NCBI GenBank assembly: GCA_963729045.1
Contig: CAVSMN010000009.1
Span: forward strand, 1-64,000
Origin: an uncultured Nitrososphaeraceae archaeon
GTDB taxonomy: Archaea; Thermoproteota; Nitrososphaeria; Nitrososphaerales; Nitrososphaeraceae
DNA: 64,000 nt
Direction: 5' to 3'
The position numbers are program-made. Position 1 is the stretch's first letter; every line of letters begins with the position of its first letter. Shown here one piece after another: positions 39,001 to 45,000 of this stretch.

Positions 39001-42000
39001 AGATTGTACAACAATGCATTTTTTATCAAGTAAATTCGCATTAATTGTTATTTTACTTTCTCCATCAGAAAAAGTGCGTAATTCGACTTCAACAGGATCA
39101 ACATTTAAACACGAAGCAATAGAATTCCCCAATTCTATCGAAGAAGGTCCCGGCAATACGACTACATCTTTCATGACATGATTGAAATGATATGAGAATC
39201 TTAAAAATGTTGAACTATTAATAATATCTTATATTAAGTATGTTCGAATTTCTACAATAGATCAATTGGATTGATATAACTGATATGTATATCCGATTTG
39301 ATATCAATGTTCACAAGAATACACATTGGAAAAACATGATAAAAAATCAGGCAAGATCGCGAGAACATCCATACTTAGGAATGTGATTGAAAATTATTTA
39401 CCACTTTATGTTATAAATATGTAGAGATCAATTTGATACAATTATGTATCAGTATAAAATCATATTGTGCAATATATATATCTATTGCTTAATAATCAGC
39501 AAGACCTCAGAATCAATTTTATCTAACTGTTCTCTAATAGCTTGAACTACTTGTTCGTTCGCGTTTAGGCTAGAAAAATCCAATAGTTGAAACCCATCAA
39601 CCAATTGAACATTTGGAGATAGATCAGAATTTGAGGAAAATTTAGAAATAATTGATGGGAGATCTGCAGACATTTTGGTTGAAAAGCCATGCATCAGTTT
39701 GCCATTATCCAAAGAGAGGCGCACTCTCCCAAATTTATCTAATATCAATATAGATTGCATTCTTGTTTTAAAGAATAATTTTTTTTTCTGATAAGTATTC
39801 ATAAAAATATAATAATTTCCTAGTTTATGTTCCAAAGTAATGTCCCCATCATTATGAAACAAGGTTTTTGCAATCTCTACTACTTCCTCTTGTTTTAACT
39901 CTCTAGAACCGACATTATTTAAGTCTAGAGTAACATTACCGATAACAGTGACTCTCAAAATTGAACGATCGCTTATATATTCCGATTGAACAGATAGTGA
40001 ATCAGGAGATGCATTTTTTCTAATAGCTACATCTTTAATCTCCGTTATTAATTGAGTAACATCTTCTGGAGTAGGATTATTAATGGTTTTCTCTTTCTCT
40101 TCATAAATCATTCCTGTGGCTACACCTATGGATGAAATGACATCGGCGTAATCTGCTTTTTTGTATTCAAAACTGAGTTTCTTAGCAACAAGTGGTACCA
40201 AAACGGAAGCACCTCCTCCTCCCCCGATAACCACTATTCTATTCTTTGATAATTTGTACTCTTTTACCATTGGAATTATATAATCCGATATCTTTGAAAC
40301 AGAAATATCTAGAACTTGACTAGCAATTTGCTCAGGCGACATTCCCATATAGATAGCCAACTTCGTAAATGCAATCCTAGCTGAATCCGCATTTCCATAT
40401 GCATTATCATTTTTTGGGATGAGACCTAATGCATTAGCGGCACATGTGTTGGTGATCCCGTATGCTTTTCCTCCAGGAACTTTGATACTAATATAGTCAT
40501 TAGGATCATTATTCAATGGACTAATAGGTACAATTTCACCCTTTATCAATTCATCAGGATCGGCAAAACAAGAATACTCTAATCCTGCAATGTGTGAGGA
40601 TCGAGGACCAACATCAATAATCTTTCTCTTTGATGAAAGTCTCAATAAAGACCCCCCAGCAACCCCACAAATTCTTACATCAAGTGATCTTATACAAGTT
40701 GGATGTTCCATTATGTTCACATAACGCATTTCAGGCTTTCCATCCTTAATTATACTGATGTTAGTTGAAGTACCACCAACTTCTATAAATATGCCTTCTA
40801 AAACCTGTAAGAAGAGCAAAGCGCCTACAACACTTGCAGCTGGACCTGAAAGCACTGTTATTATTGGCTTGTGCAAAAAAGAATCCAATGTGGTTACACC
40901 ACCATCACCTTTCATTATCATTACTGGTACATTTATGCCTAAGTTATTGACTGCAGATTTAACATAATTTGCGGTACTTGTGGCTTTTGGAAGAATGCTA
41001 GCATTAATTGTTGCTGTCAAAGTTCTGATCTCTAATCCATAAATTCCAGTTAATTCATGCCCGGCAGTACAAGGAAGTTTAGAATGCTTCATTACAAATA
41101 ATTCGTTACTTGGATCATCAACTCCGAAAGCCTCACTTACAACTATGGATTGAGCTCCCTCTGAAACCAGATTCTCTATGGATTTTTCGATCCCAGGCTC
41201 CTCTAAATATTTAGAGGTATCCAAAAAGGTATAACAGGTTCTAAGAAATTTATTAGAATTTAGGGATATATCTTTAATATGAGTTCTTTTCACGACATTT
41301 GTTTTTTCCATTCCTACCCCCATTCCAATAATGCCAACTTTTGATACGTCTCCCTCAAGAAAGGCGTTGACAGCTTGGGTGGTACTATGAGAAATTAACT
41401 CTATTTCTTTATGGTCTATGTTGCACATCTCAATTAATGTGGATAAGGCGTTAACAATGCCTACAGAAACACCGCCTTCTAAAGAGTGTGTTGTTGAAAC
41501 AGATTTTTTTCCTAGTATTTTTTTTTCAATTACGTCAATAGCTACGGCTTTGGTAAAGGTGCCCCCTACATCTATTCCGATCCTAATTTTTTTCATACCT
41601 TTTGCTCACTCGCTTTCATAAAAACCAGAAAAACGTTTGTTTCATGCATTCCAAGTAATTTAAATGCTACCATATCGAAGAGTTACATTTGTAGTGAGAC
41701 ATCAAATATTATTTCTTTGATTCCCATATATCTAAGGATTGACTGAAAGTTTTTTTTATCTGCAGAAACAAGAATTTCGAGCTTGCCTTTGCTATTCTTA
41801 TTCTTATCCAAGTCTCCAGTATATTTGAGATAATTCTTCACATCTTTTGCAACTTCAGCTGAAGAATTGATGAACTTTATAGAGGGTAAAATAGCTTCAA
41901 TATAATTTTTAACAAATGGTAAATGGGTACTACCTAATGCAATAACATCAATCGTGTTATCAATATTTGAGTCAATTATTTCTCGGATTTTATCATAGGT

Positions 42001-45000
42001 AAATTTCTGATCAAATAAAAATGATCCACTTTCAACTAGATTAATAATCTCTGAAGAATCTACCTTATCCACAAAAATCTGTTGGGGTATTTCTTTTTTT
42101 ATCAAGTAATTGAACTCTTTGCTATCAAGTGTACCTTTTGATGCCATTATTGCTATGTGTTTTTTCCTACTCAAGTTTATTGTCTTATCAAGCGGTAGTT
42201 TTGTTGAAATGATAGTTGTCGAAAAATTGTTCTTGATTTCATCATAAATTTGAACAGATGGGGTATTTGATGCCATTACTATTAGTTTTGGCTGATATTT
42301 CTCCAAAAATTTGATGGATTTTAGTATTATTGACTTTAATTCACTCTTAGTTTTATTTCCATACGGAAAATTCTTTTTATCTGCAAAATACAAAATATTC
42401 TCAGAGGGAATAATCTTCCTCAATTCTCTCACAACAGATAGCGAACCCAATCCTGAATCAAAAACTGCAATTGGCCTATATAGCATAATTAACAGTATCT
42501 AATAAGAGGTAAAAATGTTTGAAATATAATTATTTTCCAATACAACAATTACCCTCAGGGATATGATATCCATGTGGACAAATCTTGGGATGTTTTAACA
42601 GGGTACATAGTGCATCGGTAAAAATTTCTTTCATATGATGCTCAATGCCACAAACCATCTCTTCATCTACATCGATTTTTAAGGCATCTTTCATAAGTAC
42701 TTCTAACAGTCGAGTGTTTCGTATCATTTTTTTCCCGATGTTCTCACCCTCTTTTGTAAGTGTCACTATGGAACCCTTTTTATAATCAATTAAAAGAGAA
42801 TCATTTAACTTATGAAGCATTTGAACCACCGATGGTTGTGTAACATTTAAAATTTTGGCTATGGAACTAACCTTTAACTCTTGGCCACTTTCTGAAATAG
42901 ACCACATTGCCTTCAAATACATTTCAACATGCTCGGCTTCTGCGGTGCCTACATACAATTGCTCTGGGAGTCCAGAATTTTTCGAATAAACAGTCAATGT
43001 ATATGATTACACGTTATATTTTTTAACTTTATTGATTCAAAAGTAATTGAAGTAAAAAAGTTAAAGGTAAATTCATTCATTTTTGATAGAACGTCATCAG
43101 ACTTATTGCGAGATAGAACAAGGTAAGTTTCGTTCGTTTTTCTTAAATTGTAAAAGGACTTGTTTTTTGTTCAATATCAATTCTACTGACTGGATTTTAC
43201 TTTTGTAAAAGACAACTTTTTTTCCTTTTTCATTTATCACAATTCTATCTATGAATAAAAGTCCAAGATCCTTAAGTTTTTTTATTTTTTTGTATGTCGA
43301 GCTAATAGGTAGGTCATTTTCCTTGCAAATTTCAAAAACGGTTTTGGAATCTTCGATGGTAGACATTACAATCTTGTAAGAAAATCCATCAAATAATTCC
43401 TTCAATAAAATTGAAGCATTCTTATCTTCTTGATTCAGTAAATATCGCTGATCAGACAACATCATTTAGGCTACCCTAATTGTTAGGATAACCTAATATT
43501 TAAACGGTGTTATATTATTCAAGTTTAATCTACAAAATTTTAATATAATTTTTTCAAATTGTACATACTATATGCACCTATTTCAAAAAAATGGTTAATA
43601 ATTATTGGGATATTTGGATACTTTGAATAAGCAGTATTATACTAAAATATATTTTAACCCATGGTCATATCTAAACCAGTTTAGTTTTTGTTATTATATA
43701 AAAAATGAAGTTGTTTCCAAGTTCTAGCATTATAGAAAATCTAATTCCAAATAGATAAATTAATACGAACAAAAGCGTATAGTAGGTTCTTGCTATTTTA
43801 CTACAATCTCACCAACCATCGATGGGTGGTAAACACAGTAATAATCAAAAGTACCCTTATTATCAAATTTAAAGCTGAACGCTTGTTTTGAAAGTATAGC
43901 GTCCGAATCAAACAATTGACCTTCAGTAGGATCGCTGTCTGATCCGGAAGTAGCAGTATGCGATATGGTATCTGCATTATACCATGTAATTGTTTCACCT
44001 GAGTTTATAGTAATTGGATTTGGTGCGTATGAGTTGTCACCGCTGATGCCATTAATTGTTACCAGGACAGAACCTTCAGGTACAACACTAGATTGTGATG
44101 ATGGAGATTGAGCTTTTGGAATGGTACTTTGTGAGGTGGGCAATATTTTGTACAAATCCCCTGTATAGCTTAGGACATACATATACCCGTCAGGTCCTAC
44201 CTGGATATCGGTAATTCCACCGAAACCTTGTCCAAACGTAATTGGGATACTTTCAACAGGATTATCCACTTTTTTATCAGTTAATGCAGCTGCACCCCCT
44301 ACATTCGTGTTATTTATGACAATATCATCGCGTGCCTCATTTAAAGTAAATCTATATAAATTACCATTATTAATGTCACCTACAAACATATCATTTTCAT
44401 ATTCTTTACCCAACTTATCTGAATTCAAAAATTTTAGTGCAGTCGGACCTATAGGAATATGCCAAGCAAATTTGGGTTCTGCATATTTTCCGTTTCCAAA
44501 ACTCACAAGATCATTTGGTGTTGCCCCGTTACCCAACAGATCATCGTTAGAGAATCCTTGAATTAAGGACCAACCACTATTAAAGCCAGGAAAAACCAGG
44601 TTAATTTCATCGCCCGCTGTAGGACCATTCTCTGTATCCCATAAATTACCAGTCATAGGATCAAAATCGATACCGAAGCTATTTCTAATACCCATTGCAT
44701 AGTATACACCTAAAGGCAAGTCAGCACCAAAGATTGGTTCATCATCAACTAATCCACCATCTTGAGAAATTCTGAGAACGCCGCCTAAGCCATTAGGTGC
44801 TGGACCATTTCCTATATTTTGTGCTTGAGTCCTATGACCTCCTACTTCCCCCATTATCATATAGACATTATTGTCCGGTCCAATTGTTACTTTACCTCCA
44901 TTATGATCAGTTCGATTAAGATTATTTGGAATTGCAGTCAAATCCAAAAGGAGGACAGGATCTATTAATTTACCGTCCACATATTGATAACGATAAAGTC

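Follow-up and report, generated by a model that had tools for sequence, protein, structure and literature searches.

Ammonia-oxidizing archaea (AOA) carry a MurI-like gene whose product was counted as a glutamate racemase in a 2025 paper (PMC12363236), passages of which give it 32–72% of the sediment GLUR pool and infer a use of D-glutamate in hadal carbon and nitrogen cycling. Does the copy in a 64,000-nucleotide stretch of DNA from an uncultured Nitrososphaeraceae archaeon (hereafter the window) encode such an enzyme and, if not, what might its product do? The gene (41683..42486, minus strand) is single-copy and, by its ORF and alignment to B. anthracis MurI (2GZM), encodes a MurI-fold protein of 267 aa without cysteine. 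In that alignment, from which we assigned the catalytic positions, Ser73 (codon TCA, 42268..42270, minus strand) stands at the first catalytic cysteine of MurI (ACNT to ASNT) and Ser186 (codon AGT, 41929..41931, minus strand) at the second (GCTH to GSTH); alignment and codons thus reproduce the claim of the first-pass annotation that serine replaces both cysteines. On the same strand, the D10-S11-G-x-G-S15 motif (42442..42459) has D10 and S11 as in MurI, and the active-site acid Glu152 (42031..42033), whose role we take from a passage of PMC6927343, and the active-site pair Thr187-His188 (41923..41928) are conserved. The H. pylori MurI site described there includes D7, S8, T72, E150, T182 and H183, and six of the eight listed MurI active-site residues are kept in the window protein (D10, S11, T75, E152, T187 and H188).

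Structure prediction places the protein in the two-domain Asp/Glu-racemase fold with MurI as its nearest relative. Its AlphaFold model (pLDDT 93.6) matches 2GZM with a TM-score of 0.87 (Foldseek), and the VIA-align Z of the model is 31.7 to T. thermophilus MurI and at most 19.3 to the other superfamily members listed. The PF01177 profile detects the protein at E = 7e-6, under the gathering score; the two opposed acid/base positions of that superfamily fold are both present, as serines, and a search of the ESM Atlas returned nothing beyond PF01177 clusters. Against the TIGR00067 cut-off of 146.65 bits, the window protein scores 164.1, P0127 146.7, the M. sciuri copy 121.6 and the N. maritimus SCM1 protein A9A551 117.7. 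No other Asp/Glu-racemase-family gene was found in the source genome (G000, 87% complete).

The serines are a property of a whole lineage. Both are invariant in 41/41 AOA loci and present in 120/120 Nitrosopumilus-type homologues, which excludes sequencing error, local mutation or chance as their source, and the 120 closest homologues comprise 116 with Ser/Ser and four gapped at position 73 with Ser at 186. At 50% identity, 150 representatives divide into 83 Cys/Cys, 47 Ser/Ser, 7 Cys/Ser and 13 fragmentary or gapped rows, a small difference from the 80 Cys/Cys and 45 Ser/Ser counted earlier. The N. maritimus sequence had been left unread in the first-pass annotation; A9A551 (ABX11960.1) reads VASNTPS and LSSTHLP, placing Ser70 and Ser178 at the two sites, and its sole cysteine is residue 155. 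The careful tree that had been left unfinished is now complete and bears out a separate clade: all 33 Ser/Ser rows among 67 hand-picked sequences lie on one side of a single branch (support 100/99, LG+G4), and in a 138-row FastTree 52/52 Ser/Ser rows likewise stand apart from Cys/Cys MurI. Bacterial Ser/Ser rows form a clade of their own (99/90) whose placement among AOA rows is loose (83/78), and we claim no direction of transfer. S15 also marks the Ser/Ser groups, the position being Gly in 98% of Cys/Cys rows. A broad and misannotated enzyme family can be recognized by a simple signature (DxGxGS, SNxPS, SSTHL).

Among 135 amoA-bearing genomes the gene is present in 128 and absent from the search results in seven, and none of 65 genomes from the other families of the class has it. 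Two single-contig AOA genomes show a clean deletion; some AOA can do without the gene, and the earlier statement that it is fixed across AOA holds for the Ser/Ser state but not for the gene itself. Nor are the bacterial members merely some Firmicutes paralogues, as had been supposed: carriers include Alpha-, Beta- and Gammaproteobacteria, Nocardia, Staphylococcaceae and Fusobacterium. A second MurI was found in 47 of the 48 bacterial genomes searched, and of 20 such stretches retrieved 19 are Cys/Cys and one is the Ser/Ser copy itself. In bacteria the Ser/Ser protein is an extra copy beside, and redundant with, a normal Cys/Cys MurI.

Nineteen residues are invariant in the 41 AOA loci, almost all within active-site motifs (F9, D10, S11, G12, G14, S15, S17, Y33, A35, D36, P41, Y42, S73, T75, E152, L184, S186, H188 and L189), and T187 is kept in 40, while N74 varies (N 34, I 4, V 2, Y 1) and whole-protein identity drops to 50% inside one genus. 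In the 10 of 12 pairs for which it was computable, dN/dS was 0.06–0.44; this and the invariant pocket rule out a pseudogene, and broken copies are confined to a few genomes (G123, G136 and G183). Codon usage at the serines has switched: across 81 bacterial loci S186 is encoded by AGY in 66 and TCN in 15, S73 by TCN in 80 and AGY in one, and S15 is TCN in AOA versus AGY in bacteria. Since both catalytic-site serines are invariant under purifying selection and across codon switches, selection acts on serine itself and the site remains in use. The main bacterial subclade (n=81) keeps D10, S73, N74, E152, S186, T187 and H188 at 100%, whereas binding residues have changed (S11 to A in 98%, T75 to A or V, T116 to V), a pattern suggesting that catalysis was retained and the substrate varied.

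The gene neighbourhood offers several candidate partners. Downstream and co-directional lies a gene for a 704-aa hydantoinase/oxoprolinase-like protein (39482..41596, minus strand; PF01968/PF05378), which adjoins the Ser/Ser gene in 9/41 AOA loci, all of family f1, and was not found in 14 of the 40 genomes searched, including all three of g8 and all three of f3; given this patchiness, the lack of linkage elsewhere and its presence in a genome without the Ser/Ser gene (G142), we rejected an obligate partnership. The upstream, co-directional DtxR/MntR-family regulator (42530..42997, minus strand) is a neighbour only within genus g1. Outside family f1, 25 of 27 loci place a CdvB1/B2-like ESCRT-III gene head-to-head with the Ser/Ser gene; this link is broken in all 14 f1 loci and absent in bacteria, the ESCRT-III gene remains where the Ser/Ser gene is deleted, and we judged adjacency alone too weak to name it a partner. 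The genes cbiT/cbiL/cbiF lie within 6 kb in 29/41 AOA loci, which we take as ancestral synteny, no cobalamin family having appeared among 116 bacterial neighbours scanned. The bacterial gene is solitary in varied contexts. A co-directional RhtB/LysE amino-acid exporter lies within 184 nt in 10/82 bacterial loci (9 Halomonadaceae, 1 Mammaliicoccus), one copy with an AOA-type pocket (locus L173) abuts a MurT-like D-Glu amidation gene, and single loci have an N-formylglutamate amidohydrolase (L211) or a glutamine synthetase (L176) as neighbour.

Dataset S3 of PMC12974425 lists the protein as 'ND', which we read as 'not detected', in 28 N. maritimus proteomes from cultures that were not a test of D-Glu induction, with 144–207 counts for glutamate dehydrogenase. 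Four metatranscriptome runs gave contigs that overlap the gene in part, one of them covering its whole length, but contigs cannot prove transcription. A sigma-70 promoter scan stayed at chance level (19 versus 18.2), and the supplements of PMC10030591 and PMC7490402 hold no 'racemase' entry.

These observations bear directly on the published reading, argued in section 10 of PMC12363236, of a canonical Cys-type glutamate racemase that supplies the carbon and nitrogen metabolism of AOA with a meaningful flux of D-Glu. We reproduced the match to the MurI fold and the co-occurrence with amoA on which it draws. However, the same paper modelled A9A551 and, in the relevant passage, stated that the catalytic residues are present; as that protein has Ser70 and Ser178, the claim fails and the cysteine part is refuted. 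The passages concerned give no assay, our literature search found none of L-Glu/D-Glu interconversion by a Ser/Ser protein, and the 28 proteomes point the same way. We consider this reading extremely improbable and, judged from sequence, D-glutamate feeding by AOA through this protein unsupported; because the modelled protein lacks both catalytic cysteines, the D-Glu inference and similar K01776/'glutamate racemase' annotations need an assay.

That the protein is unlikely to be any glutamate racemase, as the first-pass annotation concluded, goes too far. The protein falls outside canonical Cys/Cys MurI, in a separate clade, yet serine alone does not exclude a racemase: the proline-racemase superfamily has natural serine bases, and the other six MurI residues are kept. 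A slow but genuine glutamate racemase with two serine alkoxide bases, removing or supplying trace D-Glu in AOA with a thiol-free site that may resist oxidation or nitrosation, is somewhat unlikely in our estimate. The six shared H. pylori residues, the TIGR00067 score of the window protein, the seven Cys/Ser variants among the 150 representatives, the MurT-like neighbour of L173 and the lack of another family member found in G000 all speak for it, as does a second-hand report in PMC6927343 that L. fermenti MurI retains roughly 1/1000 of its activity when Cys is mutated to Ser. The double change would by our inference cost at least 1000-fold, however, which together with the proteome data implies a tiny flux; no Mur-ligase domain (PF08245) as D-Glu consumer was found in G000 (87% complete), A9A551 falls under the TIGR00067 cut-off, N74 is non-Asn in 7/41 AOA loci, and most bacterial members lack S11 and T75 and retain a Cys/Cys MurI. 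Less probable still is a pseudoenzyme that has lost catalysis and holds glutamate, or an acid akin to it, inside the closed MurI cleft, acting as a sensor or partner protein, with the serines retained to hydrogen-bond the ligand. Cys-to-Ser exchange is, according to a passage of PMC11602996, the standard means of slowing such enzymes, and low abundance and the ESCRT-III neighbour would fit; but conservation lies in the pocket and not on a surface patch, the remainder evolves fast, the catalytic helpers D10, E152 and H188 are invariant where binding residues shift, and the ESCRT-III link fails in f1, in bacteria and after deletion. DNA gyrase is a known moonlighting target of MurI; we discarded gyrase inhibition when no GyrB domain was found in G000 (87% complete). 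A converted serine hydrolase, with S186 (or S73) as a nucleophile that H188 activates together with D10/E152, and cleaving a glutamate amide or ester (for example N-acyl, alpha-amide or cyclic), could account for the presence of Ser, His and acid residues, all invariant, in one cleft and for the glutamate-derivative neighbours (the hydantoinase/oxoprolinase-like gene in 9/41 AOA loci, L211 and L176). It is nonetheless improbable, as no hydrolase stands among the superfamily structure matches listed, the hydantoinase-like gene is patchy and occurs in G142 without the Ser/Ser gene, and both MurI catalytic sites face the alpha-carbon and not the carbonyl.

Our preferred reading, held tentatively at a probability of roughly 40%, is a low-flux, serine-based 'clean-up' enzyme that abstracts an alpha-proton from a glutamate-like metabolite and represents an uncharacterised MurI branch, one that would still be enzymatic but no working racemase for growth on D-glutamate. 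We infer its ligand class, its serine base and its role as follows. A glutamate-like acid would bind in the kept MurI pocket (D10, S11, P41-Y42-G43, T75, T187), and the alpha-proton would be taken by a serine that the kept D10/E152/H188 activate, perhaps with help from the new S15/S185 hydroxyls. Because serine bases are weaker, the likeliest substrate would have an easier alpha-H or a leaving group, such as a damaged or non-canonical glutamate derivative, with the product formed by elimination or epimerisation and the role being low-flux metabolite clean-up. This proposal would account for invariant residues clustered in active-site motifs of an otherwise diverging protein, serine retained through codon switches, a fixed catalytic set with varied binding residues in the main bacterial subclade, the Cys/Cys MurI beside bacterial copies, and a low-flux profile of solitary genes, some exporter neighbours, 'ND' in proteomes and clean deletions; Ser/Cys epimerases and Ser/Thr dehydratases described in PMC4113996 set a precedent for catalytic serine. 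Several points weigh against it. Those precedents belong to another fold and pair their serine with Cys or Thr, and no Ser/Ser case was found; invariant serines would suit a pure binding site too; the entire glutamate pocket is kept in AOA, which agrees best with plain glutamate as ligand; and neighbours give no pathway, the exporter missing at 72/82 bacterial loci and nine of the ten with it being kin. MurI can eliminate water from N-hydroxyglutamate. Our literature search on this elimination found nothing, and a hydroxylamine-damage repair version gained no support: the Ser/Ser form occurs in 0/51 genomes of a betaproteobacterial family with an AMO-bearing member, and the seven matches are Cys/Cys. 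In its boldest form, which we think rather doubtful, the clade would be the first natural two-base enzyme of the MurI fold to need neither cofactor nor thiol, racemising or eliminating at an amino-acid alpha-carbon with its Ser/Ser pair alone; it would have been gained with archaeal ammonia oxidation and would clean an undescribed glutamate derivative. Racemisation by serines alone would be chemistry new to the MurI fold; another activity would give an AOA signature gene a function.

Among known systems, MurI/RacE (TIGR00067, PF01177; 2GZM, 1ZUW, 5W16) is closest in fold (TM 0.87, Z 31.7, about 25% identity) and shares the DSGxG, PYG, xNT, E152 and TH motifs with 6/8 active-site residues. It differs in its two catalytic cysteines, serine in the clade, and in G15 (Ser), G185 (mostly Ser) and A76 (Pro); the Ser/Ser proteins form a separate clade, are an extra copy beside true MurI in bacteria, and occur in an archaeon (G000, 87% complete) in which no Mur ligase was detected. 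EcL-DER/YgeA, AspR, McyF, allantoin and hydantoin racemases, AMDase and PH1733 have the superfamily fold in common (Z 9.9–19.3) but are far more distant, at 8–18% identity. The catalytic pair of EcL-DER, given as Thr83/Cys197 in a passage of PMC12661438, indicates that a hydroxyl residue can replace one cysteine, although unlike the Ser/Ser clade it retains the other. The 50 structure matches listed for the model of the window protein include no ProR chain, and we treat DapF/ProR-type enzymes as analogues only. Within the proline-racemase superfamily, B9JQV3 (a Ser/Cys 4-hydroxyproline epimerase) and B9K4G4 (a Ser/Thr trans-3-hydroxyproline dehydratase), as described in part of PMC4113996, differ in fold and ancestry, neither is Ser/Ser, and their substrates were traced through operons, which the Ser/Ser clade lacks. 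Like the clade, they carry hydroxyl residues in place of the cysteine pair, with alpha-proton abstraction kept in their case, and by analogy the Ser/Ser proteins may work as they do.

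The window gene at 41683-42486 (minus strand) encodes a 267-aa protein of the MurI fold with serine at both positions that are catalytic cysteines in glutamate racemases (Ser/Ser). It matched 24 PDB sequences of solved glutamate racemases (E ≤0.001; best 2GZM, 9e-27), and alignment to these places ASNT and GSTH where MurI has ACNT and GCTH, giving Ser73 and Ser186; the protein contains no cysteine at all, bearing out the double replacement proposed in the first-pass annotation. Its AlphaFold model (pLDDT 93.6) has a TM of 0.87 to MurI, and structure comparison gave Z 31.7 to MurI versus at most 19.3 for other superfamily members. 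The source genome carries amoA and has no other PF01177 match, and the protein's closest named homologues are Nitrosocosmicus proteins.

The Ser/Ser state is ancient and fixed. The Ser/Ser pair is present in 116 of the 120 closest homologues, the other four being gapped at position 73; a second search, with a Nitrosopumilus-type query, returned Ser/Ser in 120 of 120, and both serines are invariant in 41 of 41 loci from ammonia-oxidising archaea (AOA; the window and 40 loci sampled across the 129 genomes with a match). At 50% identity, the 150 representatives split into 83 with Cys/Cys, 47 with Ser/Ser and 7 with Cys/Ser, the remaining 13 being fragmentary or gapped. A careful tree, unfinished at first pass, has now been completed (IQ-TREE, LG+G4 with no mixture model, 67 hand-picked rows, one row left out as unparseable) and sets 33 Ser/Ser rows on one side of a 100/99 branch; FastTree with 138 rows agrees on this grouping, and the separate clade claimed earlier stands. 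The Cys/Ser rows are dispersed among Cys/Cys rows. These bacterial MurI-like proteins (P0150, P0182, P0183, P0192, P0221, P0238 and P0249; ACNT at the first site, GSTH at the second) imply at least four forced changes among Cys/Cys rows and, judging from sequence, are possible natural single-serine racemases.

Alignment matches were found in 129 of 201 genomes of the class, four of them (G123, G124, G136, G183) with broken or partial copies. The Ser/Ser gene is present in 128 of the 135 genomes carrying amoA, plus one draft in which amoA was not found, while in the ten remaining families of the class it occurs in 0 of 65 genomes; these tallies include an unpublished genome, G132, on which no claim solely depends. 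Fixation across AOA thus holds for the residues and not for the gene, which has no match in seven amoA genomes, likewise with A9A551 of Nitrosopumilus maritimus as query. Two of the genomes without it are single contigs, and there the genes that normally flank it lie ~200 nt (G149) and ~400 nt (G142) apart, so the gene is dispensable. Frameshifted copies at G123:C1:543107-543861, G136:C1:720961-721694 and G183:C3:240015-240757 are either pseudogenes or assembly errors.

The clade also reaches well into bacteria, more widely than the "some Firmicutes" first reported. A species-genome scan with patterns from the bacterial subclade yielded 551 confirmed stretches, the best 80 of which span Staphylococcaceae, Halomonadaceae, Brucellaceae, Phyllobacteriaceae, Bradyrhizobium, Cupriavidus, Nocardia and others. 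With two plasmid-collection records these made 82 loci, and all 81 that parsed are Ser/Ser, S186 being partly search-selected because one pattern contained it, S73 unaffected. A TIGR00067 search of 48 of the 80 genomes found a second MurI-like gene in 47, and 19 of 20 stretches fetched were Cys/Cys (the other was the Ser/Ser copy of the single-match genome); the bacterial form is therefore an accessory paralogue beside MurI, unneeded for cell-wall D-glutamate. A basal group from metagenomes retains the AOA-type pocket. Two basal members, L182 and P0129, belong to a lineage reading TGA as glycine: they are open under table 25, and W stands at conserved Gly positions in P0129. L095, titled Bacillus subtilis, has the gene order of Pseudochrobactrum loci and is probably mislabelled.

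Six of the eight active-site residues listed for Helicobacter pylori MurI (D7, S8, C70, T72, E150, C181, T182, H183; PMC6927343) are kept in AOA proteins, as D10, S11, T75, E152, T187 and H188. Nearly all of the 19 residues invariant across the 41 AOA loci lie within active-site motifs, while whole-protein identity is as low as 50-56% in three family f2 pairs, each from a single genus, and dN/dS was 0.06-0.44 in the 10 of 12 pairs where it was computable. Serine persists whichever of its two codon families is used: at S186, 66 bacterial loci have AGY and 15 have TCN, and at S15 all 39 parsed AOA loci have TCN, against AGY in 80 of 81 bacterial ones. The clade further gained S15, P76 and mostly S185. 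Its main bacterial subclade lost S11, T75 and T116 and keeps D10, S73, N74, E152, S186, T187 and H188 at 100%; altered binding residues with a retained catalytic set would be what is usually seen in an active family whose substrates differ. These sequence comparisons indicate that the active site is still in use. In L124 versus L143 and L125 versus L145 (single genera, f2) the protein is 50-56% identical and the adjoining ESCRT-III protein 98%, which may reflect either a loosening of constraint or replacement of the gene in place.

In bacteria the gene stands alone, in surroundings that differ from locus to locus. Only one neighbour recurs: a co-directional RhtB/LysE-family exporter gene lies no more than 184 nt away in 10 of 82 loci (nine Halomonadaceae, one Mammaliicoccus sciuri; L033, L041, L044, L046, L055, L056, L058, L063, L097, L111). 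Glutamate-related neighbours are single cases: glutamine synthetase (L176), N-formylglutamate amidohydrolase (L211) and, at L173:1467-3004, a MurT-like (lipid II isoglutaminyl synthase) gene abutting a Ser/Ser gene with the AOA-type pocket, one instance that hints at D-glutamate chemistry. In AOA, 25 of 27 non-f1 loci and 0 of 14 f1 loci have a CdvB1/B2-like ESCRT-III gene placed head-to-head with the Ser/Ser gene, and Nmar_0060 adjoins Nmar_0061 consistently with this pair (PMC3684127). The two genes, ~100 nt apart, stay together across inversions seen in three AOA families (L121-L146, L152; e.g. L135:5858-7353). Two tetrapyrrole methyltransferase genes (cbiL/cbiF-like; window 34026-35545, plus strand), ~6 kb away, are a remnant of synteny seen in 29 of 41 AOA loci. 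A 704-aa hydantoinase/oxoprolinase-like gene (39482-41596, minus strand) has orthologues 45-97% identical in many AOA; none was found in searched genomes of genus g8 and family f3. A hydroxylamine link was unsupported, the Ser/Ser form occurring in 0 of 51 genomes of a betaproteobacterial AMO-bearing family. Neither a Mur-ligase domain nor gyrase B was found in the source genome (87% complete). Dataset S3 of PMC12974425 marks Nmar_0060 ND, which we read as not detected, in 28 samples, and gives glutamate dehydrogenase 144-207 spectral counts; the study varied iron and temperature, and the ND applies to those conditions.

These data bear on a published account, in which A9A551 of N. maritimus SCM1 is a canonical glutamate racemase feeding D-glutamate into AOA metabolism (PMC12363236). 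The structural model named in its methods is AF-A9A551-F1; A9A551 (ABX11960.1, our P0457), unread at first pass, carries VASNTPS and LSSTHLP, hence Ser70 and Ser178, with a sole cysteine at 155 and 40% identity to the window protein. The main text of that paper is silent on the substitution, although residue labels may stand in its Fig. 5C, and we found no description of a Ser/Ser MurI clade in literature on AOA racemases and serine-substituted racemases, a scope without most subscription journals and bioRxiv supplements. With serine at both catalytic positions of the very protein modelled, the account as stated is scarcely credible, which corrects a functional claim on a globally abundant group.

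The protein is not a canonical MurI: it lacks the defining cysteines, and its clade is separate. The earlier verdict, "unlikely to be a glutamate racemase", holds to that extent, yet a true racemase working slowly, though unlikely, keeps real weight. Easy racemase activity is argued against by L. fermenti MurI, in which Cys-to-Ala abolishes activity and Cys-to-Ser cuts it 1000-fold (Glavas and Tanner 1999, cited in PMC6927343), and by the strongly slowed serine mutants of histidine racemase (PMC11602996). We consider it probable that the protein still functions in the manner of a MurI-fold alpha-proton abstractor, and tentatively (roughly 40%) favour a low-flux enzyme that uses serine to clean up a glutamate-like metabolite. 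What the data establish is the fold, the residues, the tree, selection, distribution and the losses, whereas ligand, chemistry and role are our proposal. A serine hydrolase seems improbable. A ligand-binding pseudoenzyme is doubtful, given the catalytic serines of a Ser/Cys epimerase and a Ser/Thr dehydratase (PMC4113996) and the functional Thr/Cys pair of EcL-DER (PMC12661438). None of these three enzymes is Ser/Ser, unlike the AOA clade.
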